From positions 222,982 to 254,981 of the forward strand of contig JABARH010000003.1 in the NCBI GenBank assembly GCA_019187665.1: a DNA stretch of 32,000 bases, written 5' to 3'. This stretch comes from Anaerolineales bacterium. GTDB lineage: Bacteria; Chloroflexota; Anaerolineae; Anaerolineales; Villigracilaceae. The position numbers and the translations under genes are program-made. Positions within the stretch are counted from its first letter, which is position 1. Every line of letters starts with the position of its first letter. Under the pieces are notes generated by a model. That model was not told the origin of the DNA. It did no database searches and was given only the letters and a program-made list of their open reading frames with translations. Shown here in pieces: positions 651 through 32,000 of this stretch.

Positions 651-727
651 CACGGGTGTATAATGGAAATCATCGCCCTTCTTCGAAAACCAAATCAATT
701 TTCATTCATTCTTAGACGGAGGAAGAA

Positions 728-1741
728 ATGAGCCGCTACAGATTGGTTTCCAGTGCGACACTGATCCTGCTGGCCGCGCTGGCCTGCAACCTGCCGCAGG
801 CTTCCGCGCCGGTCGCGCCGCCAGTGGAAATAACCGTGATCATCACCAATACCGCCGCGCCTCTGGTGCCCGGCGCCCCAACTGCAACCTTCACGGCGAT
901 TCCTTCGGCGATCCCTCCGACCGGCCTGCCCACAGCCACCGCCTGCTCGCCTACTGTGACAGCGAGTTCCAGCATCAATGTCCGATCGGGGCCTGGCACG
1001 GTCTATACCGTGATCGGTTCCATGTCGACCGGGGAAACAGCGGGGGCAGCCGGGAAGAGCAATGACGGAACATGGTATTACATCAATTTTCCCGGGGGAT
1101 CCGGCGGGTATGGCTGGGTGTCGGGGAGTGTTGTCTCGGCCGCGTGCATCCCACCCACACTGGCGGTAATCGCCGCGCCGCCAACCCCGCTCCCTGCCAG
1201 TGGAACTTGCAGGGATGGATACGTCTGGCGGCTGATCACACCTTCCGATAAGGTGTGTGTCACGCCCGCCGCGAAGGCCCAGGCCGAAGCGGATAACGCC
1301 GCGGCCAACTCGCGCAAGATCGTGAACGTGTACGGCATGGACGCCTGTATTTCCGGCTATGTCTGGCGCGAGGCCTATTCCGGCGACGTGGTGTGCGTGA
1401 CCCCGGCCACGCGCAGCCAGGCCGCGTCGGATAATGCAGCCGCGGCTGCGCGCTGGGTGGTCGGCGCGTATGGCCCCCATACCTGCATCGCGGGCTATGT
1501 CTGGCGCGAAGCGCGCCCCGGAGACGATGTATGCGTTACCGGCACAGTGCGTTCGCAGACCGCCGCCGATAACGCCGCAGCCGGTTCGCGCAAGGCAGTG
1601 AACGTGTACGGCGTGAACGCCTGCATCTCCGGCTACGTCTGGCGCGAGGCCTTCGCGGGCGATTACGTGTGCGTGACCCCGGCAGTAAAGAGTCAAGTCG
1701 CCGCGGATAACGCCGCCGCGCCCAGCCATACCTGGCCGTAA
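728..1741 (+). CDS. Secreted (possibly lipid-anchored) protein: signal peptide, Pro/Thr/Ala-rich linker, SH3b-like domain, then four tandem 46-aa Cys-containing repeats
   Basis: GGAGG RBS at 717-721 and TATAAT at 659-664 lie upstream. The N-terminus MSRYRLVSSATLILLAALAC is signal-peptide or lipobox-like. INVRSGPGTVYTVIGSM...GWVSGSVV matches the bacterial SH3 pattern. It is followed by repeats of C-x2-GYVWREA-x2-GD-x-VCVTPA-x3-Q-x3-DNAAA. Confidence 0.8.
   Translation: MSRYRLVSSATLILLAALACNLPQASAPVAPPVEITVIITNTAAPLVPGAPTATFTAIPSAIPPTGLPTATACSPTVTASSSINVRSGPGTVYTVIGSMSTGETAGAAGKSNDGTWYYINFPGGSGGYGWVSGSVVSAACIPPTLAVIAAPPTPLPASGTCRDGYVWRLITPSDKVCVTPAAKAQAEADNAAANSRKIVNVYGMDACISGYVWREAYSGDVVCVTPATRSQAASDNAAAAARWVVGAYGPHTCIAGYVWREARPGDDVCVTGTVRSQTAADNAAAGSRKAVNVYGVNACISGYVWREAFAGDYVCVTPAVKSQVAADNAAAPSHTWP
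1208..1738 (+). repeat. Intragenic tandem repeat, period 138 nt (46 aa): three full units plus a 39-aa terminal unit
   Basis: The first Cys codon of each unit falls at 1208, 1346, 1484 and 1622, exactly 138 nt apart. Each unit has two conserved Cys and the GYVWR(E/L) core. Confidence 0.9.
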
Positions 1742-2085
1742 AGCGGGAAATCCAAAATGTCCGTTCGCCAACCTTTGCGATCTCCCGGTCGCGAAGGTTG
1801 GCTTTTTTTTCTGGAAGATTTATGCATGCCTATCTTGTCCGGCTGACCCCTCCGTTTCGGGGTCATGCCGATCCCGGTCAGGCCGTGCCGATGGAGAAGC
1901 ATATGCGTGACCAATTTGAGTATTTGAGAATCAAATCTCCGCTTCCGGTCTCGCCGATTGTGAATGACGCGGATCTCCGCGGCTTCAGGCGCGGAATCCA
2001 TCAAGTCGTAGAAACGGTCAACGAGCGCGCGTACGCCCGTCTCGCCGCCGAGGAGTTCGTAGAGAGAATGTTCGGAGTCAATCAT
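1693..2085 (-). pseudogene. Globin-like (truncated-hemoglobin-type N-terminus) ORF, probably decayed
   Basis: The first ~35 aa (SLYELLGGETGVRALVDRFYDLM) resemble the N-terminus of bacterial truncated hemoglobins. The rest is Arg/Lys-rich low complexity and lacks the expected GHP-x-LR-x-RH region. The ORF runs through the neighbour's terminator and 49 nt into the convergent CDS. Confidence 0.3.
1768..1810 (+). terminator. Rho-independent terminator of the SH3b-repeat gene
   Basis: A 13-bp stem pairs ccaacctttgcga with tcgcgaaggttgg (one G-U), with an 8-nt loop, followed by c plus T8 at 1803-1810. Confidence 0.85.
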
Positions 2086-2873: not shown

Positions 2874-4070
2874 ATGACCAAAGAAACTGAAGCCGTCATT
2901 TTATCCGCCGCGCGGACGCCGATTGGAAAATTTCAGGGCGCGTTGAGTTCCGTCCCTGCGACGCAACTTGGCGCGATCGCCGTGAGAGCCGCGGTGGAGC
3001 GGGCAGGCATCCATGCCGAAGAGATCGAAGAAGTCATCATGGGCAACGTGGTGCAGGCGGGCGAGGGTCAGGCTCCCGCGCGGCAATCGGGAATTTTGAG
3101 CGGCATCCCCGCCACGGTCAGCGCGAGCACGATCAACAAAGTCTGCGGGTCGGGGTTGAAAGCCGCGATGATGGCGAGTCAGGCTGTTCGAGCGGGCGAT
3201 GCGTCGCTCTTCGTCGCAGGCGGATTCGAATCGATGAGTCGCGCTCCATTTCTCGTCGCGGGTCGTTCGGGCGAATTAAAATTTGGAGACCAGCCACTCA
3301 CCGACGCGCTTCTCAAAGACGGCTTGTGGGATCCCTTCGAAAATTGGAGCATGGGCAACGCGGCGGAATTTATTGCGGATGAATACGAGGTGACGCGCGA
3401 GGCGATGGACAACTTTGCGCTTCGCTCGCACGGGAAGGCTGTTGAGGCGCAAGCGGCGGGCCGATTCGCGCCTGAGATCGTCCCCGTGCGAATCGAATCG
3501 CGCAAAGGCGAAATGATCGTAGACACGGACGAAGGTCCGCGAAAGGATTCGACTCTCGAGGCGTTATCCAAACTCAAGCCCGCGTTCAAGCCTGGCGGAA
3601 AAGTAACTCCTGGCAATTCGTCGCCAATGAACGACGGCGGCGCGGCGGTTGTGATCGCTTCGCGCGCGTATGCTGAGAAAAATAAATTGAAGCCGATGGC
3701 GCGCGTGGTGGGGTATGCACAAGCCGCGCTCGAACCGAAATATTTGTTCGCCGCGCCCGCTCATGCGATTCCGAAGTTGTTGAAAAAGATTGACTGGAAA
3801 CTATCCGACGTGGACTTGATCGAACTCAACGAAGCCTTCGCCGCGCAAGTGTTGGCAGATGGTTATGCTCTCGCAGATCAAGGCTGGGATTGGGACAAAG
3901 TCAACGTCAACGGTGGCGCGATCGCGTTGGGGCATCCGCTCGGCGCAAGCGGAGCGCGTGTGTTGACGACGTTGTTGTATGCTTTGAAAGATCGTGGGTT
4001 GAAGCGCGGCATTGCCTCTTTATGTTTAGGTGGAGGCGAGGCGGTGGCGATGGCGGTTGAAATCGAGTAG
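2874..4070 (+). CDS. Acetyl-CoA C-acetyltransferase (thiolase II)
   Basis: Full-length thiolase pattern: active-site Cys in NKVCGSGLKA, the NEAFAAQ motif, and C-terminal GGAIALGHPLGASGAR and CLGGGEAVAM (thiolase signatures). Confidence 0.95.
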   Translation: MTKETEAVILSAARTPIGKFQGALSSVPATQLGAIAVRAAVERAGIHAEEIEEVIMGNVVQAGEGQAPARQSGILSGIPATVSASTINKVCGSGLKAAMMASQAVRAGDASLFVAGGFESMSRAPFLVAGRSGELKFGDQPLTDALLKDGLWDPFENWSMGNAAEFIADEYEVTREAMDNFALRSHGKAVEAQAAGRFAPEIVPVRIESRKGEMIVDTDEGPRKDSTLEALSKLKPAFKPGGKVTPGNSSPMNDGGAAVVIASRAYAEKNKLKPMARVVGYAQAALEPKYLFAAPAHAIPKLLKKIDWKLSDVDLIELNEAFAAQVLADGYALADQGWDWDKVNVNGGAIALGHPLGASGARVLTTLLYALKDRGLKRGIASLCLGGGEAVAMAVEIE

Positions 4071-4123
4071 ACACGTACACAAGTAGACAGGTAAACACGT
4101 GTGTACTTGTGTACGTGTTTACC
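4067..4123. repeat. Octamer-built hairpin element abutting the thiolase stop codon
   Basis: Four direct octamers (GTAGACAC, GTACACAA, GTAGACAG, GTAAACAC) are followed by three inverted units (GTGTGTAC, TTGTGTAC, GTGTTTAC). This gives a perfect 15-bp stem (4071-4085 with 4104-4118) and a competing 11-bp stem (4090-4100 with 4113-4123). Confidence 0.85.
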
Positions 4124-9710: not shown

Positions 9711-9771
9711 CACTGAGACACGGAGACACTGAGAAAAGAATTAAAAACTCCGCGACTCAGTGTCTCCGTGT
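9711..9771. repeat. Octamer-built hairpin element between convergent genes
   Basis: The left arm is three CACNGAGA octamers (9711-9734) and the right arm is inverted TCTCNGTG units. A perfect 16-bp stem pairs 9718-9733 with 9756-9771, with a 22-nt loop. Confidence 0.8.
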
Positions 9772-9877
9772 TTCAAAATAGAGCGAAAGGATTGCTCAGG
9801 TAAATTCCTAATCTGCAAAATGTCGCATTACGAGAACTGAATCCAACTGCATAACATCAGTAAAAAAATTCCATTGG

Positions 9878-9925
9878 ACAAAAACCCCCGTTGCTGGCGC
9901 AGTTGAACTGCGTCAGCAACGGGGG
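9878..9925 (-). terminator. Strong rho-independent terminator of the cytochrome operon
   Basis: A 19-bp stem (9885-9903 with 9907-9925, one G-U) has a 3-nt loop. On the minus strand it is followed by TTTTTGT. It lies 20 nt after the cytochrome stop codon. Confidence 0.85.
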
Positions 9926-9945
9926 TTCGGCTTGATTCGGTTTCC

Positions 9946-13557: not shown

Positions 13558-13609
13558 ACTTACGCAACCATCCGTTCGGCGCGTTAGAGAACGCCAATTA
13601 TGCGTACGT
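13558..13609. repeat. Nested small hairpin element containing a 26-nt sequence repeated exactly at 31970-31995
   Basis: GCGTTAGAGAACGCCAATTATGCGTA at 13581-13606 is identical to 31970-31995. The inner stem is GCGTT/AACGC (13581-13585 with 13590-13594). The outer imperfect stem pairs ACTTACGCA (13558-13566) with TGCGTACGT (13601-13609). Confidence 0.8.
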
Positions 13610-13698: not shown

Positions 13699-15804
13699 AT
13701 GCCCTTCCTCTTCCAAAAATTTCACAACTGGAAATACAGCGCGCAGACGATCCTCCTCGGCGCGGCCCTGCTCGCCTACGGACTCTTTGCCGGTCAACAG
13801 GGTTTCCACTGGGATGATTGGGGCTTCGTGTGGATGATGCGCTTCGGCGGCGCGGAACGTCTGCTGGATTATTTCTCTGTGGCGCGGCCCGTGCTGGCGC
13901 GGATGTATCTCGTCACCCTGCCCCTGCTCGGAGCGAATCCGCTCGCGTGGCAGGTCTTCGCATTGTTCTGGCGCGCCGCCTGCGCGATCGCCATGTGGTG
14001 GGCGCTTAAGCAAATCTTCCCAAAATATCCGCGAGAAATTTTCTGGATTTCCCTGCTCGCCCTCGTTTACCCCGGCTTCAGCCAACATTCCATCGCCATC
14101 GCCTACGGACATTACTCGCTGCTCTTCACCGCCTTCTGGCTCTCGCTTGGATTGATGATCGTCGCCCTGCGCGCCGAAAAACGGAAATGGATTCCCCTAT
14201 CGGCGGCGCTGATTCTTTCTGCGTGGTCGCTGTTTTCGGCGGAATACGCATTCGGATTGGAATTACTTCGCCCGGTATTTCTATGGTTTGCAATCGCCAA
14301 TGCCTCCGATACGCTCAAAACAAAAATAATCAAAACCCTCCGCGCTTACATCCCCTATCTCCTGATCCTCCTGGCTTTTATCATCTGGCGCGTCTTCATC
14401 TTCGGCTTCCAAATGTACGACGCCGAACTGTTCGACTCGAGCGCGACAGGCGCGCCCAGCGGACTGTCCGCCCTGCCGCGCATGATCGTAGACGCGTTGC
14501 TCAACGCCTCCGTCCGCGCCTGGACCGGCCTGCTCGATTTCTCCGCCTATGCCGATTTCGGCGCGCGCCTGCTCACGCTCACCTTGATCATCATCATCGG
14601 CGCATTCCTTTTCCTCGTCCACTACGATTCTCACTTATCACTTATCACTCGTCACTCATCACTTCCCGCTCCTCACTCCGCACGATCTTCCCAACCTCTA
14701 CTCCCCTTCACCCTCCTCGGCATCCTCGCCCTCCTCACCGCCGGGATTCCGTTCTACGTCGCCGGTCTCCCCATCACATTAAATTTCCCCAACGACCGCT
14801 TCACCATGTCCTTCGCGTTCGGCGCGGCAAGCCTGCTGGTCGGTCTCATCAATTTGATTCGCAAAAACGAATATCGCGCCGTCGCGTTAAGTCTGCTCGT
14901 CGCGCTCAGCATCGGCAAACAGATTCAATTCGCGCATGCCTTCCGCGAAGACTGGGAACTGCAAAAAAGTTTTTTCTGGCAACTCACCTGGCGCGCCCCG
15001 CAGATCGAGCCGGGCACTGCCCTGCTCTCCGACGATTCCGCGATTCGATTCTCCACCGACTATTCCCTCGCCGGTCCGCTCAACTGGCTCTACAACCCCG
15101 GCAATCCCAACGGCGGCGTGGACTACGCCTACTTTTTCATCGGCACGCGCCTGCATCACGAACTGCCCGACCTCAAAGAAAATCTACCCATCCAATCCAA
15201 CGTCCGCCTCTCAAGTTTCAGCGGCAACACCAGCGACATGCTCGTCTTTCAATTCCGCACGCCCGCCTGCCTGCACATCCTCGATCCAAAATATGATTCA
15301 GACATTCCCGCGCCGCCCAATTCAATTAGTGTGACGAAGGACATGCTCGCGGACGGAATCCCCGTTCTGACCGCGCGGACCTTGCAAGCCCTGCCCCTCT
15401 CCGATGTTTCCCGCATCGTGACTGACGGGACAGCGGGCGCCGCGCCTCCATCCTTTCTCTTCGGGACAGAGCCGCCGCATACATGGTGTTACTACTTCCA
15501 AAAAGCGGACCTCGCCCGTCAATCTGGCAACTGGGAACAAGTTGCAGAACTCGGCGACCAAGCCTTCGCGATTCCCTATCTGCCGGACGACGCCTCCGAA
15601 TTCCTCCCGTTCATCGAAGCCTATCTGCGCCTTGGACGAATGGACGACGCCCGCCAGTGGACGCGCAACGCCAGCAGGCAGATGCCCGTTATCGCTCCAG
15701 CCCTGTGCGCCGTGTGGCAGAGAGTCGCCGCGGATGAAATCGCCATCCCCGAATCCGCGCTGGAAAAAACGATCCGCGAATTAAAATATTGCCCGTCGCA
15801 ATAG
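13699..15804 (+). CDS. Large polytopic membrane protein, GT-C/ArnT-PMT-like glycosyltransferase fold suspected, with a C-terminal soluble TPR-like region
   Basis: More than 10 predicted TM helices. There is an acidic HWDDWGF motif in the first loop, as in GT-C enzymes. The C-terminus has helical-repeat-like sequence (GNWEQVAELGDQAF...AYLRLGRMDDARQW). The function is inferred only from this architecture. Confidence 0.6.
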   Translation: MPFLFQKFHNWKYSAQTILLGAALLAYGLFAGQQGFHWDDWGFVWMMRFGGAERLLDYFSVARPVLARMYLVTLPLLGANPLAWQVFALFWRAACAIAMWWALKQIFPKYPREIFWISLLALVYPGFSQHSIAIAYGHYSLLFTAFWLSLGLMIVALRAEKRKWIPLSAALILSAWSLFSAEYAFGLELLRPVFLWFAIANASDTLKTKIIKTLRAYIPYLLILLAFIIWRVFIFGFQMYDAELFDSSATGAPSGLSALPRMIVDALLNASVRAWTGLLDFSAYADFGARLLTLTLIIIIGAFLFLVHYDSHLSLITRHSSLPAPHSARSSQPLLPFTLLGILALLTAGIPFYVAGLPITLNFPNDRFTMSFAFGAASLLVGLINLIRKNEYRAVALSLLVALSIGKQIQFAHAFREDWELQKSFFWQLTWRAPQIEPGTALLSDDSAIRFSTDYSLAGPLNWLYNPGNPNGGVDYAYFFIGTRLHHELPDLKENLPIQSNVRLSSFSGNTSDMLVFQFRTPACLHILDPKYDSDIPAPPNSISVTKDMLADGIPVLTARTLQALPLSDVSRIVTDGTAGAAPPSFLFGTEPPHTWCYYFQKADLARQSGNWEQVAELGDQAFAIPYLPDDASEFLPFIEAYLRLGRMDDARQWTRNASRQMPVIAPALCAVWQRVAADEIAIPESALEKTIRELKYCPSQ
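14631..14679 (+). repeat. Heptamer tandem repeat inside the membrane-protein CDS
   Basis: The units are TCACTTA TCACTTA TCACTCG TCACTCA TCACTTC CCGCTCC TCACTCC, encoding SHLSLITRHSSLPAPHS between two hydrophobic segments. Confidence 0.8.
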
Positions 15805-15841: not shown

Positions 15842-17479
15842 ATGAAGCAGACCTACGACTACGTCATCATCGGCTCGGGATTCGGCGGAAGCGTTTCCGC
15901 CATGCGTCTCGCCGAAAAAGGATATTCGGTGCTCGTCCTCGAAAAAGGGAAACAATTCGAGGATAAGGATTTTGCAAAAACAAACTGGCAGTATTGGAAA
16001 TACCTGTGGCTGCCCGCCCTGCGCGCGCACGGCATTTTGCAGATCAGCATCCTCAAAGGGGTGATGGTCATGCACGGCACGGGCGTGGGCGGAGGCAGTC
16101 TTGGTTATGCCAACGTCCTCGAAGTCCCCACCGCTGAAACGTTTGCGACTCCCGCATGGAAGCAAAACCTGTCCTGGGGAAAAATCCTCGAGCCGCATTA
16201 TGCCACCGCCAAAAAAATGCTCGGCGCGGCGCGCAACCCAAAACTTTGGAAGGCGGACCTGCTCCTGAAAGATTTCGCCGAGGAACGCGGCATGGGACAC
16301 ACCTTCCGCGCCACCGAAGTCGGCGCATACTTCGGCGAGGCGGGCGTCACCGTCGCGGACCCATACTTCGGCGGAGCGGGACCCGACCGCGCGGGATGCC
16401 GTCACTGCGGCGGGTGCATGGTGGGGTGTCGTCACAACGCGAAGAACACACTCCCAAAGAATTATTTGTATTTCGCGCAGAAGAACGGCGCAGAGGTAAT
16501 GGCGGAGGTTGAAGTTGTAGATGTAAAACCGCTGACAATTAACAGCGGACAGTTGACTGCCAGCCACCAACCATCAACTACCAACGGCACTCGTTACGAA
16601 ATCACCTACCATTCCTCCACATCTCCATTCAAGCGCAAGCGAACAATCCATGCCAAGAACGTCGTCTTCTCCGCGGGCGTAATGGGAACGATGCGCCTGC
16701 TTTTGAATTTGCGCGACGTAAAAAAATCCCTGCCGAATCTTTCGCCGCGTCTCGGCCACATGGTACGCACCAACTCCGAAGGTCTGCTCGGCTCGCTGGC
16801 GCGCAACTCAGACATCAACTATTCAGAGGGCGTCTCCATCTCTTCCATCTATAACCACGACGAGGTCACGCGCGTCGAGCCGGTGCGCTACCCCGACGGG
16901 TCCAGCCTGATGCGCTTCCTCGCCGCGCCGCTGATCGAAAAAGACATCCCCGTTATGATGAGGATTCTGAAATTCATCGCCTGGTCGCTGACTCACCCGC
17001 TCGATTTTCTAAAGGCGCTCTTCCTGCCGGACTGGGCGCACAACACCACCATTCTGCTCGTCATGCAAAACGCCGACAACCGCATGAGATTCCGCATGGG
17101 CCGCAGTTTCTTCACACTCTTTCGGCGCGGTCTGGTCGCGGACGAGGAGCCTGGCTACACGATCCACGCGCAAGTCGGCGGCTCGCACGAACTGACGCGC
17201 GAATTCGCCCAACGCACCAACGGCATCGCGCTCGGCTCCATCGGCGAAAATTTGCTCGGCTTGCCCACCACCGCGCACATCCTCGGCGGCGCGCCCATTG
17301 GAAAAAACGCCGAAGACGGTGTTGTGGATGAAAATTTTGCCATCCACAACTACCCCGGCCTCTACATCATTGACGGCTCGATCATGCCCGCCAATCCCGG
17401 CGTCAACCCGTCACTGACAATCACCGCCCTCGCGGAATATGCGATGAGTCGGATTCAAGGGAAGTATGTAGACAAGTAG
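15842..17479 (+). CDS. GMC-family FAD oxidoreductase (cholesterol-oxidase/choline-dehydrogenase-like)
   Basis: YDYVIIGSGFGGSVSAMRLAEKGYSVLVLEKG is the GMC N-terminal FAD fold. The C-terminal LYIIDGSIMPANPGVNPSLTITALAE is the GMC signature. The ATG at 15842 is preferred over the listed TTG at 15821. The last codons (VDK-stop) lie in the octamer array. Confidence 0.9.
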   Translation: MKQTYDYVIIGSGFGGSVSAMRLAEKGYSVLVLEKGKQFEDKDFAKTNWQYWKYLWLPALRAHGILQISILKGVMVMHGTGVGGGSLGYANVLEVPTAETFATPAWKQNLSWGKILEPHYATAKKMLGAARNPKLWKADLLLKDFAEERGMGHTFRATEVGAYFGEAGVTVADPYFGGAGPDRAGCRHCGGCMVGCRHNAKNTLPKNYLYFAQKNGAEVMAEVEVVDVKPLTINSGQLTASHQPSTTNGTRYEITYHSSTSPFKRKRTIHAKNVVFSAGVMGTMRLLLNLRDVKKSLPNLSPRLGHMVRTNSEGLLGSLARNSDINYSEGVSISSIYNHDEVTRVEPVRYPDGSSLMRFLAAPLIEKDIPVMMRILKFIAWSLTHPLDFLKALFLPDWAHNTTILLVMQNADNRMRFRMGRSFFTLFRRGLVADEEPGYTIHAQVGGSHELTREFAQRTNGIALGSIGENLLGLPTTAHILGGAPIGKNAEDGVVDENFAIHNYPGLYIIDGSIMPANPGVNPSLTITALAEYAMSRIQGKYVDK

Positions 17480-17539
17480 ACACGTACACACGTAGACACG
17501 TAGACACGTACACACGTAGACACGTACACACGTAGACAC
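17468..17539. repeat. Octamer microsatellite, 9 units (GTAGACAC/GTACACAC)
   Basis: Nine contiguous 8-nt units, counted directly. The first two units contain the final codons and the TAG stop (17477-17479) of the GMC gene. It uses the same unit family as 4067-4123. Confidence 0.95.
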
Positions 17540-17684
17540 GTATCTCGTATCTCGTATCCCGTATCCCGTATCCCGTAACCCGTAACCCGTATCCCGTAAC
17601 CCGTATCCCGTATCCCGTAACCCGTAACCCGTATCCCGTAACCCGTATATCCCGTAACCCGTATCCCGTATCCCGTATCCCCCC
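17540..17684. repeat. Heptamer microsatellite, 20 units (GTATCTC x2, then GTATCCC/GTAACCC, one unit expanded to 9 nt)
   Basis: Counted directly. Eighteen units carry CCC on the plus strand, which reads as GGG-N4 periodicity on the minus strand. The array ends 22 nt before the kynureninase ATG. Confidence 0.95.
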
Positions 17685-17705
17685 TTCATCCTTTACAATA
17701 AACAC

Positions 17706-18980
17706 ATGTCCACTTTCTCCCCCTCCCGCTCTCACGCCCTCGAACTCGATCAACAAGACCCCCTCGCCTCCTTCCGCGAACGCTTCGTCATCAGCGACTC
17801 CGAACTGCTCTACATGGACGGCAACTCGCTCGGTCGTCTGCCCAAAGCCGCAGTGGAACGCACCCGTCAAGTCGTCGAAACCGAATGGGGACAAGACCTC
17901 ATTCGCGGCTGGAACAAAGGCTGGTGGGAAGCGCCGCAACGCGTCGGCGACAAGATCGGACAACTGACCGGCGCCGCACCGGGTCAAGTCATCGTCAGCG
18001 ACACAACCTCGCTCAACCTCTACAAACTCGTCATGGCGGCGTTAATGCACCAACCGAATCGCAAACGCATCATCAGCGACGCATTCAACTTTCCCTCCGA
18101 TCTTTATATCTTGCAGGGCTGCGCCAACGTATTCGGCAACCGCCACGAAATCATTCGCGTCGGTTCGCAAGACGAAGGATTGACTCCCGATCTCAACGCG
18201 CTCGAATCCGCCATCAACGAAGACACCGCCCTCGTCACGCTTTCGCACGTCTTCTTCAAAAGCGGCTACCTCTACGACATGCAACACATCACCGACCTCG
18301 CCCACCGCAAGGGCGCGCTCGTCTTGTGGGACCTCTGCCACTCCGTCGGCGCCCTGCCCATCCAACTCGACGCCTGCAACGCCGACCTCGCCATCGGTTG
18401 CACCTACAAATATCTCAACGGCGGACCCGGCGCGCCCGCCTTCCTCTACGTCAACAAAAATATTCAGCAAAAAATGGTCTCACCCATCTGGGGCTGGTGG
18501 GGACAAAACAAACCGTTCGACTTCGGTCTCGATTACGAACCCGCGCCCGGGGTCAACCACTTCCTCGTCGGTTCCCAGCCGATACTCTCCCTGCTGATGA
18601 TGGAATCCGCGCTCGACCCGACTCTCGAAGCCGGGCTGGATTCCATCCGCCAAAAATCGGTCGCGCTGACGGGCTACCTGATCCACCTCGCCGACGAGAT
18701 CCTCTCCCCGCTGGGATTCCGCCTCGGCTCCCCGCGCGCAGCGGATCGGCGCGGCTCGCACGTCTCCCTCCGCCATGCCGACGCGTACCGCATCAACCGC
18801 GCGTTGATCGAGGAGCTGAACGTCATCCCCGACTTCCGCGCCCCCGACAACATCCGCCTCGGGCTCGCGCCGCTCTACACGACCTTCGTCGAGGTGTGGG
18901 ATACAATAGACCGCATCCGCCGCGTGATCGAGGAAAAACGCCACGAAAAATATCCGCAGACCAGACTCACGGTAACATGA
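17706..18980 (+). CDS. kynU: Kynureninase (PLP-dependent)
   Basis: The N-terminal [14 protein letters not shown]...YMDGNSLG, the WDLCHSVGA motif and the PLP-lysine motif [13 protein letters not shown] are characteristic of KynU. Confidence 0.9.
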
Positions 18981-19957
18981 CCCGCGCCGCATCGCACACC
19001 CGCATCATCCACATTCCAAACGCCGAATTCCTGCCGGGCGCCCGGCTGGAATCGCTGCGCGTGGAAAAACGCGGAAAACGCGAGGACCTGGCGCTCGACA
19101 TCCTCGGCTTCAAACCGGGCGGAGCGCCCGCGCTGGTCATGGAAGATGACAGGCTCTACGAGCGCATCGAAGGACATACCCGCCCCATCCGCTTGCGCTT
19201 CAAAGGCGTGAAAGATATTCAACTCAGCGGCTTATATGAAAATCTTGCAGAGATTCCAGCGGAGCATGATACCCGCCTCCTGCGCGATATTTTTGCGTTC
19301 CGCCCCAGGGATGAATCGCTTGCGTTTTTCCTGGTGATGAACAATGCCCCCGAGGAAGCCGACCTGCGATTCTTTGCCGGGCGTGTCGTCGAAGAATCGC
19401 GCGAAGGCGAGACTCACCCGGTGGTGATCACGCGCGATTGGTCCTCGCCGCCAGCCATGCCAGAGCGGATCGTCCCGGACACAAAGAGCCTCTATCAAAA
19501 ATTCGGCGGCGACCCGGTAACGGTAAAACTCAAAGGCAGACCGCATCACCGGCGCCTGTTCATCGGCGGGTTGGATAAACAGACCGAATCCCGCCCGGAC
19601 GTTGACACGGTCTTGAACCTCGGCGAAGAACCCAGCCGCTGGGCGATCGCCAATCGCGCGCTCGACCCGCGCGACCGCTGGTCGCATAAAGGCGAAGGAC
19701 GCCTCGGCATGGATGTGGACGAGATCACGCGCGAAGCCTATTGGGTCACCGAACGCCTGCTGTCCGGTCAACGCGCGCTGGTGCATTGCGTGGCTGGAAT
19801 GAATCGTTCCGCCACGATCTGTTGCGCGGTGGTCATGCTGCTCGAGGGACTCTCCGCCGAAGCCGCGCTGGAGCGCGTGCGCAAGCATCACCCCTGGGCG
19901 CGCCCGGATGCAAGCCACTGGCTGAAATTGCGCTGGCTGGCAAGCACGCTAAAATAA
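18977..19957 (+). CDS. Cys-based protein phosphatase (dual-specificity/PTP-like HCx5R domain) with an unassigned ~200-aa N-terminal domain
   Basis: The ATG at 18977 overlaps the kynU stop (ATGA). The C-terminal VHCVAGMNRSATI matches the HCxxGxxR(S/T) P-loop. The listed 690-aa ORF upstream of 18977 is an out-of-frame overlap with kynU. Confidence 0.75.
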   Translation: MTRAASHTRIIHIPNAEFLPGARLESLRVEKRGKREDLALDILGFKPGGAPALVMEDDRLYERIEGHTRPIRLRFKGVKDIQLSGLYENLAEIPAEHDTRLLRDIFAFRPRDESLAFFLVMNNAPEEADLRFFAGRVVEESREGETHPVVITRDWSSPPAMPERIVPDTKSLYQKFGGDPVTVKLKGRPHHRRLFIGGLDKQTESRPDVDTVLNLGEEPSRWAIANRALDPRDRWSHKGEGRLGMDVDEITREAYWVTERLLSGQRALVHCVAGMNRSATICCAVVMLLEGLSAEAALERVRKHHPWARPDASHWLKLRWLASTLK

Positions 19958-19989
19958 TATCTCCGAAGCCGCCCGGCTCCGGAGATATT
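19956..19989. terminator. Hairpin between convergent genes (likely the fbaB terminator)
   Basis: A 15-bp stem (19956-19970 with 19975-19989, one mismatch) has a 4-nt loop. On the minus strand it is followed by ATTATTTTA. Confidence 0.6.
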
Positions 19990-19994
19990 GTTCA

Positions 19995-21059
19995 CTACGC
20001 CACCAAGATACCCGTATCCAGATACACATCCTGAATAGTGTTAAGCAACTGCACGCCCTCCGCCATCGGCCGCTGGAAGGCTTTGCGCCCGGAAATAAGA
20101 CCCTGCCCGCCGGCGCGCTTGTTGATCACGGCGGTCGCGGCGGCCTCGGCAAAGTCGTTCTCGCCCGACGCGCCGCCGCTGTTGATCAGGCCGGCGCGCC
20201 CCGCGAAACAGTTGATCACCTGATAACGGCACAGGTCAATCGGATGGTCGCTGGTCAGGTCGCTGTAGATACGCTTGTCCAGTTTGCCGTACGAACTCCC
20301 GCCGGAGTTCAGCGCGATAAAGCCGCCGTTATTTTCGGGGAGTTTTTGCTTGATGATATCCGCCTCGATCGTGACTCCAATATGATTCGCCTGGCCGGTC
20401 AAGTCGGCGGAGACGTGATAATCCTTATCCTGCTTGAAGGCGGGGTTACGAAGATAACACCATAGCACGGTTGCCATGCCAAGTTCGTGCGCCAGGGCAA
20501 AGGCCTGCGCGATCTCGACAATCTCGCGGTGCGAGTCGTCTGAACCGAAATAGATGGTCGCACCGACCGCGGCCGCGCCCATGTCGTAGGCCTGCTCCAC
20601 TGTTCCAAAGAGAATCTGTTCGAAACTGTTCGGGTACGTCAGCAACTCATTATGATTGATCTTCACAAGGAAGGGAATCTTGTGCGCGTACTTGCGCGAC
20701 ATCATCCCCAGCGCGCCAAACGTGGAGGCGACCGCGTTACATCCGCCCTCGATGGCGAGTTGGACGATCTTTTCAGGATCGAAGTAATCGGGATTCCTGG
20801 CAAAGGACGCGCCGCCCGAATGTTCAATGCCCTGATCCACCGGCAGGATCGAGAGGTAGCCGCTCCCTGCAAGACGACCGGCGTTGTATATACGTTGCAG
20901 GTTTGCCAGCACGCGCGGATTGCGGTCCGACTGCGCGAAGACGCGGTCCACAAAATCGGGACCGGCCGGGCACAAGCGTTCCTTCGGTATCTTCGGGGCA
21001 TTGAATCCGAGCAGGAACTCCGCTTTGGCCCCCAACAGGGTTTGAATGTTCGTTACCAT
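19995..21059 (-). CDS. fbaB: Class I fructose-bisphosphate aldolase (FbaB/DhnA type)
   Basis: The length (354 aa) and sequence ([23 protein letters not shown] with the Schiff-base Lys region, [14 protein letters not shown]) resemble E. coli FbaB from memory. Confidence 0.88.
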
Positions 21060-21313
21060 CTATCATTCTCCTTAAGAATCTGGTGTTTTTCTCGCTGCGA
21101 ATGGAAATCCGGGCGGCGAAGGTTTTCGAATACTCTCTGCGCGCGCTGCATCCCTTCGCGGTTAATGTACGCGCCTGACGCGTGCTGCGAGATGTATTCT
21201 GCGTCCAGCAAGATTCCTTAAAAGTTGCGGCGCTGAAACTGCGCGGCAGCGCTGCTTTACTCTTCTTCAAACACGAACTTTGGACGACCCAAGTCTTTCT
21301 TGATTAGACTTTA

Positions 21314-21442
21314 TCGGTAATTTCTCTACCGTACATGAGAAGATTTTTACCGCAAAGCACGCTAAGGTCGCCAAGTTAAAAAGGTTTTCTTTGCGTTCTT
21401 TGCGGGCGTAGCGGTGCAAATGTACGGTAGAGAGTCGGTAAT
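21314..21442. mobile_element. MITE-like nested hairpin element with terminal inverted repeats and flanking 8-nt direct repeats
   Basis: The perfect 14-bp inverted repeat is TCTCTACCGTACAT (21323-21336) and ATGTACGGTAGAGA (21420-21433). The direct repeat TCGGTAAT sits at 21314-21321 and 21435-21442, one nt outside each inverted repeat. The core (21349-21415) is a 3 x 9-mer / inverted 3 x 9-mer hairpin related to the ggt insertion. Confidence 0.7.
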
Positions 21443-29936: not shown

Positions 29937-29955
29937 CCCGGAGTACAATCCACGC

Positions 29956-31263
29956 ATGAATTTATTGCGCGCGCTGCGATTCCAGCCAGACACAGGCCGC
30001 AACCGGGTCGCGTTCGTTGGAGCCGGGGGAAAAACCACATCCATCTTTCAGCTGGCGCGCGAACTGCCCGCGCCGGTCCTCGTCGCATCCACGACACACT
30101 TTGGCGCGTGGCAAACGCGCCTGGCCGATACGCATCTCGTGGCAGAAATGCCCGACGATTTCGACCGGATTTCAATCGAGGGCGTCATCCTTGCAACCGG
30201 TCGCGTGGAGGGAGATCGCACCACGCCGCTGCCGGCCCGCGTTTTGAATCATGCGCGCGCACTGGACATCCCCCTGCTCATCGAATGTGACGGCGCGCGC
30301 GGCCTGCCCCTCAAAGCCCCTGCTGAACACGAGCCGCCCATCCCCGATTTTGTGGATACGGTCGTCGTCACTGCGGGATTAAGCGGACTCAGCCAGCCGC
30401 TGGATGACTCACACATTCACCGCCCGCTTCTCTTCTCAACGTTGAGCGGGCTTGGCCCTGGCGAGCCGCTCACGCCCGCAGGCGTGACGCGCGCCCTGCT
30501 CCATCCCGAGGGCGGCTTGAAAAATATTCCGCCGGGCGCGCGCCGCGTGTGCCTGCTCAACCAGGCCGACACGCCGGAACTGCAATCCGCCGCGCAAGCC
30601 ATGAGCGAAACCCTGCTGGAAAAATACGATTCAGTGATCATTGCCAGCCTGAAAGATAAGATCGTTCATGCCGTCCACGAACGCGTGGCGGGAATCATTT
30701 TGGCGGCGGGAGAATCGACCCGTTTCGGGCAACCAAAACAAATCCTCGATTGGCGCGGCGAGCCGTTTGTCCGCGTGGTGGCGAAGCAGGCGCTCGCGGC
30801 CGGACTCGCGCCGGTGATCGTAGTTACCGGCTCCCACGCCGGCCTGGTGGAAAATGCGCTCAAGGAGTTGGATGTAGCGATCGTTCACAACGAGGATTGG
30901 CGGGGCGGCCAGGGACGATCTATTGCAAAAGGAGTCGCCGCGCTTCAGGAAAATATCGGCGCGGTCCTATTTCTATTAGCGGACCAGCCGCAGGTCACAG
31001 CAGAGGTGATGCGCGCGCTGATCGAACTGCACCGGCGCGAAATGCCCGCGATCGCCGCGCCCCTCATCCTTGAGGAGAGACGCGGTAATCCCGTTCTCTT
31101 CGACCGCGCCGCCTTCACGGATCTGCTGTCGCTGCAAGGCGATGTCGGAGGCCGGGGAATCTTCCACAAGCATACAGTCGCCTATCTGCCCTGGCACGAT
31201 GACGCGTTATGGCTCGACGTGGACACGCCGGAAGATTATGAACGGCTGCTGCGCGCAACATAA
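29956..31263 (+). CDS. Fusion of YqeC-family selenium cofactor biosynthesis protein and MocA/YgfJ-like molybdenum cofactor cytidylyltransferase
   Basis: The N-terminal VAFVGAGGKTTSIFQLA...VLVASTTH is the YqeC P-loop pattern. The C-terminal half, GIILAAGESTRFGQPKQIL...LLADQP...LDVDTPEDY, is a MobA-like NTP-transferase (MocA type). Confidence 0.85.
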   Translation: MNLLRALRFQPDTGRNRVAFVGAGGKTTSIFQLARELPAPVLVASTTHFGAWQTRLADTHLVAEMPDDFDRISIEGVILATGRVEGDRTTPLPARVLNHARALDIPLLIECDGARGLPLKAPAEHEPPIPDFVDTVVVTAGLSGLSQPLDDSHIHRPLLFSTLSGLGPGEPLTPAGVTRALLHPEGGLKNIPPGARRVCLLNQADTPELQSAAQAMSETLLEKYDSVIIASLKDKIVHAVHERVAGIILAAGESTRFGQPKQILDWRGEPFVRVVAKQALAAGLAPVIVVTGSHAGLVENALKELDVAIVHNEDWRGGQGRSIAKGVAALQENIGAVLFLLADQPQVTAEVMRALIELHRREMPAIAAPLILEERRGNPVLFDRAAFTDLLSLQGDVGGRGIFHKHTVAYLPWHDDALWLDVDTPEDYERLLRAT

Positions 31264-31969: not shown

Positions 31970-32000
31970 GCGTTAGAGAACGCCAATTATGCGTAAGCCC
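31970..32000. repeat. Second copy of the 26-nt repeat (element truncated by the window edge)
   Basis: 31970-31995 is identical to 13581-13606. It lies 25 nt upstream (minus sense) of the dedA start. On the minus strand it contains CATAAT. Confidence 0.8.

Follow-up and report, generated by a model that had tools for sequence, protein, structure and literature searches.

The spacer between the genes for a GMC-family oxidoreductase and kynureninase (kynU) in a metagenome-assembled genome (MAG) of an Anaerolineales bacterium is occupied by a 217-base compound tandem repeat, in which nine octamers are followed by two GTATCTC units and 18 GTATCCC/GTAACCC units (GTAWCCC hereafter). The array lies at positions 17468-17684 of a 32-kb window of contig JABARH010000003.1, the window being the whole stretch of DNA that was analysed. 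We consider it probable, if far from certain, that this array is a hypermutable, slippage-born compound long simple-sequence repeat (LSSR) of the kind represented by the short tandemly repeated repetitive (STRR) sequences of cyanobacteria and by the GGGNATC repeats, and that it is close to neutral, tuning expression at the very most. It would represent, at this locus, the 8-nt and 7-nt tandem arrays that populate the genome of this uncultured bacterium. Such arrays would arise and change by replication slippage and multi-unit duplication, and slippage-driven expansion in permissive non-coding space would have remodelled the GMC-kynU junction. Any effect of so nearly neutral an array on kynU would probably be limited to modulation by way of the spacer's length or of the context upstream of the promoter. 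Arrays of G-rich heptamers in precisely this position have already been described (PMC4692102), and the feature is not new in kind.

The composition given above is that of the initial annotation, and an exact parse of the sequence reproduced it in full (Table 1). The array was also said to fill almost the whole intergenic region, which is correct: it covers 205 of the 226 bases between the two genes and ends 21 nt before the kynU ATG. Tandem Repeats Finder (TRF) returned a period of 8 with 9.4 copies (score 122) and a period of 7 with 20.1 copies (score 205), at 89% matches. The two-unit heptamer GTAWCCCGTAWCCC, with at most one mismatch, occurs 17 times in the window, as compared to 0.03 times expected from dinucleotide-preserving shuffles. 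The array thus shows the near-perfect head-to-tail iteration, beyond chance, of units in the 5-11-nt class that defines LSSRs. As is also typical of LSSRs, units whose length is not a multiple of three lie outside coding sequence, between the GMC stop codon (inside unit 2) and the kynU ATG. A higher-order pattern is superimposed on the units. In the octamers, a 24-nt pattern is repeated, positions 17468-17491 and 17492-17515 agreeing at 23 of 24 positions; in the heptamers, a 42-nt segment of six units is duplicated (Table 1), which is the mark of a multi-unit duplication event. Together, these internal duplications indicate stepwise multi-unit events. No inverted arms or terminal inverted repeats were found at 17468-17684, so that the palindrome expected of repetitive extragenic palindromic (REP) sequences or MITEs (miniature inverted-repeat transposable elements) is lacking. 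A MITE, or a clustered regularly interspaced short palindromic repeat (CRISPR) locus, was rejected as an identity for the array, which has neither spacers nor inverted termini. A telomere-like (GGGTTAC)n repeat was rejected as well, the array being inside a 308-kb contig and flanked by genes that are syntenic in relatives.

The source MAG carries the locus tags HFACDABA, and the same organism is also found in the metagenome assembly WBZY01 and in the Logan assemblies of SRR10609162, -163, -166 and -167; contigs from these assemblies are 99.85-100% identical to window 18278-21348. A Logan contig of SRR10609167 (L253) contains the full GMC gene, with a sequence identical to that of the MAG, and ends 39 nt into the octamers. 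Since this short-read assembly ends inside the array with identical sequence, the array is real. Exact look-ups in the other assemblies yielded no other contig with a complete kynU, and only the GMC-side junction was recovered independently; the total length and unit number are those of the MAG assembly, L253 covering the existence of the array and not its exact length. An assembly artefact had been named in the initial annotation as one of the findings that would overturn it. That the array, or its length, is a mis-assembly or polishing product is now extremely unlikely. Such a product would fit with the breakage of short-read assemblies at the array (L253 ends there, and no other contig has a complete kynU), with the location of several arrays at contig ends or beside N runs in the survey of GTAWCCC repeats described below, and with a unit number known from one assembly. 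However, an independent assembly of another run is identical over the array's first 39 nt, the higher-order duplications and the variant units scattered among the others resemble evolved sequence, arrays of the same octamers, 146-226 nt in length, are spanned within contigs of a different assembly of the same organism, and similar arrays are present in isolate genomes (Pedobacter, Chryseobacterium, Paenibacillus, Streptomyces). For annotation and assembly, arrays of this type matter because they break short-read contigs and create spurious open reading frames (ORFs). Two minus-strand ORFs over the array (17411-17689 and 17421-17987) were rejected as spurious, their products being repeat translations (GYGIRDT...).

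In this genome, at least seven further intergenic sites contain the octamers of the kynU array, in up to 25-28 copies. One of these sites lies in the window (second octamer site, Table 1), where it separates a thiolase-like gene (2874-4070) from the gene that follows (ATG at about 4139); the TAG stop of the upstream gene is again within a GTAGACAC unit. A metagenome scan for three GTASACAC units gave five WBZY01 contigs (L219, L202, L145, L176 and L127). L219, which is the same as L245, encodes HFACDABA_02225 and HFACDABA_02226 and belongs to the same MAG, and the proteins of L202 and L145 fall in the MBV639xxxx accession range. Arrays of GTAGACAC type have 6, 18 and 25 copies in L219, 16 in L145 and at least 7 (7.4+) in L202. 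In L176 and L127, which come from the same metagenome, 13-28 octamer copies are found, often with inverted partial copies. Along a co-directional gene string in L245, three of the five spacers are filled by arrays, in either orientation, that start about 20 nt past the stop codon and end at most 8 nt before the ATG. The arrays occupy non-coding gaps between co-oriented genes, which they fill by expansion up to the upstream stop and the signals of the downstream start. Genes beside the arrays of this genome encode a lipid kinase, a helicase-like protein, a malic enzyme and a response regulator. The octamer unit is abundant, and GTAWCCC arrays other than that at kynU were not encountered in about 50 kb of the source genome. 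Of the 137 octamer arrays of the metagenome scan, 112 were pure (GTACACAC)n, on contigs of lower mean GC content (0.47), and these were not used. Elsewhere in the window, a convergent intergenic region contains a hairpin of related octamers, GAGACACK (9714-9775; 20-nt arms, 95% complementary, 22-nt loop) and, about 110 nt beyond it, a near-perfect hairpin with 22-nt arms (9883-9927) that resembles a bidirectional terminator.

Comparison of sequences between relatives indicates that both the copy number and the heptamer unit change fast. The locus compared differs from the kynU site: L246 comes from a relative whose lipid kinase is 94% identical to that encoded in L245. The kinase-helicase spacer contains 25 octamers in the MAG (L245) vs none in L246. 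Both have the sequence 'cgtgTATACT' before the ATG, so that the TATACT-N6/7-ATG arrangement found directly after the array in L245 is kept in the array-less ortholog. In the next spacer but one, which has identical flanks, L245 carries 18 octamers and 5.4 copies of GATCACT, and L246 (10290-10460) carries 12.4 octamers of GTAGACAC type fused without a spacer to 10.4 copies of GCAACTT/GTAACTT, this compound array ending 5 nt before the ATG. Overall, the octamer-then-heptamer architecture is found at three sites. The hypermutability expected of an LSSR is seen both here (18 vs 12.4 and 25 vs 0 copies) and at the kynU site, where relatives have no array.

At the kynU site itself, four syntenic loci (L001-L004), with kynU 84-85% identical, keep the gene order GMC - kynU - phosphatase - SIMPL and have no array, which places the acquisition of the array in the lineage of this MAG. 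In L002-L004, 30 nt lie between the GMC gene and kynU; the spacer of L001 is longer, at about 160 nt, and consists of unrelated sequence that can form a hairpin. This unrelated element of about 150 nt (L001 4170-4320) has complementary ends (acacaaaggacaccaagtacacgaagg… and …ccttcgtggcctttgtgt) and an 8-nt periodic 'ACAC' flavour. The array would have been acquired within a GMC-kynU-phosphatase junction that, in relatives, looks like a tight operon. All four related kynU genes have an AAGGA-type Shine-Dalgarno (SD) sequence, as do most genes of the window an SD sequence; none is found between the array and the kynU ATG. Arrays of this kind can hence rebuild operon junctions. In the present case, the array would have supplied the stop codon of the GMC gene, the final codons of which (V D K) are repeat-encoded, would have lengthened the spacer from about 30 nt to 226 nt and would have placed a GG-free, unusually unstructured and pyrimidine-rich sense stretch directly upstream of kynU. 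At the same time, kynU appears to have lost its SD sequence and to carry instead a -10-like TACAAT at leaderless spacing (Table 1).

According to the initial annotation, any kynU promoter must lie in or upstream of the array. This holds for a putative -35 element, which would fall in the array, but the candidate -10 hexamer TACAAT lies in the 21-nt gap downstream of it. A scan of the GMC-kynU region for the sigma-70 two-hexamer consensus gave no full promoter, and no plus-strand terminator was found there. A leaderless-type -10 that belongs to kynU itself may lie immediately past the array. Alternatively, kynU could be transcribed by read-through from the GMC gene, given the 30-nt spacer of the relatives. 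TACAAT-N6-ATG, with the same hexamer and spacing as at kynU, also precedes a 435-aa ORF starting at 29956 (window 29941-29958), and its repetition suggests that leaderless-type promoters may be used in this organism.

The heptamer half of the array has counterparts far beyond this genome. At least three GTAWCCC units were found in at least 120 stretches of a collection of species-representative genomes, for a chance expectation of about 2, a count that gives no comparison of GTAWCCC abundance with that of other heptamers. Among the matches listed, from which the source MAG is absent, are Bacteroidota, Planctomycetota, Chloroflexota, Acidobacteriota, Gammaproteobacteria, Streptomyces and others, and some genomes recur (CAYPGE01 with three contigs; CAZCVY01, DIQU01 and JACSRL01 with two each). 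Unit numbers run from 3 to 18; in many of these arrays GTAWCCC is combined with other heptamers, and some of them are at the ends of contigs. We examined the orientation of 101 GTAWCCC arrays from other genomes. Within 30 nt before a start codon, the C-rich strand is sense in 27 cases and the G-rich strand in 15, and within 30 nt after a stop codon the proportion is reversed (7 vs 14; Fisher p = 0.03); this bias is modest and uses heuristic greedy gene calls, and a cruder ORF-proximity count gave a weak bias. Tandem repeats other than the seed were then counted in 913 kb of GTAWCCC loci: 101 have a period of 7, as compared to 10, 17 and 10 with periods of 6, 8 and 9, respectively. A G3/C3 tract is present in 20 of these 101 other heptamer arrays, which is about chance. 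Heptamer periodicity, and not quadruplex potential, is what these genomes have in common. In Chloroflexota/Anaerolineae genomes (L059, L069, L074, L077, L112), a short unique segment separates GTAACCC arrays from inverted copies of the type GGGTTAC/GAGTTAC/GCATTAC, and the heptamer arrays form hairpin-capable inverted pairs.

The likeness to the cyanobacterial STRR heptamers, pointed out in the initial annotation, is upheld as a resemblance. It does not extend to membership: the host here is an Anaerolineales MAG and the units differ from those of STRR1-3. The STRR units are CCCCAGT, TTGGTCA and CAACAGT, unrelated to the units of the kynU array. Rehm et al. 2015 (PMC4692102) described G-rich heptamers, GGGAATC in Xanthomonas and GGGGA(C/T)T in Nostoc PCC 7120, that form arrays of 2-26 units between co-oriented ORFs, with the G strand antisense less than 50 bp upstream of starts (or sense less than 50 bp after stops). 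These repeats vary between relatives and form quadruplexes in vitro, and their function was not identified; the authors cite the idea that 7 nt correspond to the DNA segment held by the polymerase. The kynU array shares with this GGGNATC type a unit made of a G3 tract and 4 nt, an intergenic position between co-oriented genes, variation of length and sequence among close relatives, and neighbours of mixed, mostly metabolic function. Its placement is also the same, in that the G strand is antisense and the array stops 21 nt short of the kynU ATG, and the 101 arrays of other genomes show a like bias. In contrast, the units GGGATAC/GGGTTAC match neither the GGGNATC nor the GGGGA(C/T)T consensus, the host belongs to the Chloroflexota, and 18 units, instead of the preferred 4, are fused without a spacer to octamers that have no quadruplex potential. 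High abundance across the host genome is expected of a GGGNATC-type unit; in about 50 kb of the source genome, one GTAWCCC array is seen.

As summarised in PMC4679880 and PMC4692102, Mrazek et al. 2007 found heptanucleotides to be the most abundant class of long simple-sequence repeats and proposed slippage as their origin. From these summaries, the LSSRs of Mrazek, Guo & Shah 2007 resemble the present arrays in their near-perfect head-to-tail repeats, dominant period of 7, sporadic taxonomy and proposed slippage origin. They differ in that the dominant dispersed unit seen in this genome is an octamer, and in that Chloroflexota are not among the repeat-rich taxa that the two summaries name. 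MacGregor 2015 (PMC4679880) reported TAACTGA heptamers just upstream of starts without ribosome-binding sites in Beggiatoaceae, Cyanobacteria and Bacteroidetes. There, as here, one unit is present at many intergenic sites, arrays end a few nt before starts and the ribosome-binding site is often missing; up to 43 copies are found in some genomes. However, the unit is another one, most sets have 2-6 copies, and a post-transcriptional role is a proposal in both cases. The best-worked functional case is the (ATCTTTC)n array of Haemophilus influenzae hmw1A, which depends on an RNA hairpin (PMC12721329). In its 5' untranslated region, as at kynU, a heptamer array lies between the promoter region and the start, where its length could grade expression. 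The hmw1A system nevertheless requires a long RNA hairpin with a G-rich partner and RNase III, unlike the structure-poor and G-poor sense RNA of kynU, and its target is an adhesin rather than a metabolic gene. Finally, dispersed tandem sets in Geobacter metallireducens include 4 x GGGACCG, which is present in 49 copies, as well as octanucleotide sets that are inverted (PMC2700814). These share with the present arrays multicopy 7-/8-nt tandem units and opposite-strand pairs (compare window 4067-4122, L127 and L176), but they have a fixed number of 4-5 units and are read as regulator sites or RNA elements, whereas the numbers here range from 3 to 28 and vary between relatives. In the literature, we found no paper naming GTAACCC/GTATCCC or GTAGACAC as bacterial repeats, and nothing specific on Chloroflexi repeats.

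On the minus strand, the heptamers read (GGGATAC/GGGTTAC)n, with 18 G3+ tracts and 4-nt loops (one of 6 nt), the basis on which a G-quadruplex (G4) and i-motif potential had been assigned to the array. G4Hunter scoring (25-nt window), proposed in the initial annotation as a check, gives about 1.2-1.27 for the heptamers and reaches 1.6 where the array ends in C6/G6, which supports the G4 potential in silico. No other long match to the canonical G3N1-7 motif occurs in the 32 kb, and G4-aware folding of the minus single strand predicts four three-layer G4s (-39.2 vs -19.5 kcal/mol, RNA parameters). By these predictions, the antisense strand does have G4 potential when it is single-stranded DNA. 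In the octamer block, the G4Hunter score is about 0 and G4 potential is absent; the structural point of the initial annotation thus holds for single-stranded antisense DNA, and for the heptamer half only. The C-rich character ascribed to the sense strand is borne out. Its sequence, and that of the corresponding RNA, has no GG anywhere, and the sense RNA folds worse than 200 of 200 shuffles (z = +3.6; z = +1.8 with DNA folding). The G4/i-motif potential does not unify the family, given that G tracts are lacking both from the octamer half of the kynU array and from the remaining arrays of this genome, and that G3/C3 tracts are at chance level in the heptamer arrays of other genomes. It is most likely a by-product of whichever unit expanded and may favour slippage, but it is probably not a dedicated regulatory device. 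A quadruplex reading is possible for the heptamer half, and unsupported as the reason for the existence of the array. The locus provides an internal control in this respect. G4-competent heptamer and G4-incompetent octamer blocks are fused and placed alike, which argues that periodicity and permissive non-coding space, and not quadruplex formation, drive such arrays.

A regulatory G4/i-motif element would require that the (GGGWTAC)18 tract of the template strand fold upon unwinding and block or modulate RNA polymerase, or recruit G4-binding proteins, thereby controlling kynU and the phosphatase gene with a strength set by the unit number. The predicted folding described above, the sole long canonical motif of the window and the much greater expansion of the C3 units (18) as compared to GTATCTC (2) in the same array are consistent with such an element. 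However, the G strand is the template strand, RNA-paired in the transcription bubble; C3 tracts are not known to give i-motifs except at acidic pH; and any three-tetrad G4 would face competition from a 130-bp duplex. In addition, arrays without G tracts are placed alike in this genome, genomes with GTAWCCC show no enrichment of G3/C3 among their other heptamer arrays, and the array is missing in relatives that retain the operon. A close analogue, (GGGAATC)3GGG, does form a K+-dependent G4 in vitro with a T1/2 of 50 C, and such repeats are preferentially placed, as is the kynU array, less than 50 bp before a start and with their G strand antisense, but the same study found no regulatory role for them and found 4 units preferred, not 18 (PMC4692102). 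On balance, we regard this regulatory element as unlikely. The position of a heptameric repeat directly before a start also recalls a contingency (phase-variation) locus, in which the gain or loss of units would switch or grade kynU-phosphatase expression within the population, as does (ATCTTTC)n upstream of hmw1A. Graded control by a transcribed heptamer array is documented in H. influenzae (PMC12721329), and copy number differs among close relatives of the present organism, at another locus. But the RNA hairpin required by the hmw system is absent here, the downstream genes belong to ordinary metabolism rather than to surface or virulence functions, and the arrays of this genome adjoin unrelated housekeeping genes, an argument that Rehm et al. 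likewise raised against phase variation (PMC4692102). Furthermore, unit number would alter neither frame, promoter spacing nor RNA structure: the array is outside ORFs, the -10-like hexamer is downstream of it, a -35 in the last of identical units keeps its spacing to the -10 at any unit number, and the sense RNA has no stable structure. A contingency locus is therefore very unlikely.

The transcribed array could act at the RNA level instead, as a long, structure-free, pyrimidine-rich platform before an SD-less start, which would favour ribosome loading (by S1- or cold-shock-protein (Csp)-type binding) or would uncouple kynU translation from the GMC gene. The weakly structured, GG-free sense RNA and the missing SD sequence of kynU, which its orthologs and most genes of the window possess, point in this direction. 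So do the GTAWCCC arrays within 30 nt of starts elsewhere, in which the C-rich strand is sense more often (27 vs 15), and the same proposal was made for the TAACTGA heptamers of Beggiatoaceae (PMC4679880). Yet octamers occur upstream of starts in both orientations in the same genome (in L245, the sense strand of spacer A reads GTGTCTAC), a normal SD sequence follows many arrays (L127; L071, L107, L119), S1/Csp-type binding is hypothetical, and if kynU is leaderless (TACAAT-N6-ATG), the array is outside its mRNA. Such a leader function seems improbable to us. A binding-site array for a sequence-specific DNA-binding protein, such as a global regulator or a nucleoid protein, would account for the recurrence of one unit genome-wide, at at least seven sites and often with inverted copies, and has a precedent in the dispersed hepta- and octanucleotide sets of G. 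metallireducens (PMC2700814). It is nonetheless highly improbable, considering that the copy number ranges from 3 to 28 and shifts between close relatives, that the units degenerate freely (GTAGACAT, GTGGACAG, GTAAACAC), that 8-nt and 7-nt periods do not hold sites on one helix face and that no candidate protein was identified.

Some observations also weigh against the slippage-born, nearly neutral repeat that we favour. Pure local slippage does not by itself explain the presence of one octamer at many separate sites of one genome, nor the recurrence of GTAACCC/GTATCCC within single genomes of other phyla, and a degree of selection, or a process specific to the sequence, may play a part. Near starts, the bias in position and strand is a hint of constraint or function. 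In addition, about 50 kb of the source genome were sampled, and genome-wide statements rest on this sample. Taken further, these points could mean that the 7-/8-nt arrays of this Anaerolineales lineage and the cross-phylum GTAWCCC arrays are functional or actively propagated modular elements, repeatedly seeded with the same unit by a sequence-specific process and serving as promoter-upstream or leader modules for leaderless or SD-poor genes. The recurring octamer, the -10-like hexamers that arrays abut at leaderless spacing in kynU and HFACDABA_02225, the octamer-then-heptamer architecture at three sites and the strand bias near start codons are hints in this sense, but we judge modular elements of this kind quite unlikely. 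The slippage-born LSSR remains our preferred interpretation. The locus adds a Chloroflexota example to the question of why bacteria gather 7-nt (here 8-nt) repeats beside genes, and the recurrence of one unit at many sites of a genome is a question shared with the STRR, GGGAATC and TAACTGA repeats. As the organism is uncultured, functional tests would need heterologous hosts.

Table 1 Coordinates of the kynU array, its parts and associated features in the window
Feature	Position	Strand	Basis or remark
Octamer array, 9 units (GTAGACAA, GTAGACAC x5, GTACACAC x3)	17468..17539	+	Sequence parse, TRF
Two GTATCTC units, octamer-to-C3-heptamer transition	17540..17553	+	Sequence parse
18 GTATCCC/GTAACCC units, one being GTATATCCC, the last running into a C6 tract	17554..17684	+	Sequence parse
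Six-unit (42-nt) duplication, unit pattern T-A-A-T-A-T twice	17568..17653	+	17568-17609 copied at 17610-17653, second copy with TA insertion
TACAAT, -10-like hexamer, 6 nt before kynU ATG (leaderless-type spacing)	17694..17699	+	Motif match only
GMC-family oxidoreductase gene, 545 aa	15842..17479	+	Pfam; ATG at 15842 set by ortholog alignment (conserved start)
TAG stop of GMC gene	17477..17479	+	Supplied by second octamer of the array
Kynureninase gene kynU, MBV6394827.1	17706..18980	+	Pfam
Dual-specificity phosphatase (DSPc) gene, MBV6394828.1 / HFACDABA_00398	18977..19957	+	Start overlaps kynU stop by 4 nt
Second octamer site (GTAGACAC GTACACAA GTAGACAG GTAAACAC, then inverted copies)	4067..4122	+	Hairpin, 26-nt arms, 88% complementary, 4-nt loop

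A search of the whole 32-kb window against Rfam (gathering thresholds) and a scan for tRNA and transfer-messenger RNA (tmRNA) genes gave no matches. Other repeats of the window are of different types. The overlapping ORFs 695-1771 (-) and 728-1741 (+) contain, at 1246-1719, a 138-nt repeat in four copies (62-81% identical), which probably corresponds to a 46-residue protein repeat. Upstream of the GMC gene, ORF 13699-15804 encodes a 701-aa membrane protein without a Pfam match. It contains, at 14630-14683, about seven copies of TCACTTA/CTCACTC heptamers, apparently in a loop (…VHYDSHLSLITRHSSLPAPHS…). Heptamer or octamer repeats are also found in the corresponding upstream ORF of L001 (1210-1349, CACTGAT and ACACAGGT) and of L002 (789-821, CCAACCA), at positions that may or may not correspond. 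Lastly, an exact 26-nt repeat, GCGTTAGAGAACGCCAATTATGCGTA, which contains a small GCGTT/AACGC hairpin, is present at 13581-13606 and, 18 kb apart, at 31970-31995. The first copy is intergenic and the second lies about 30 nt from the window end; this sequence is probably a further dispersed short element of the source genome.

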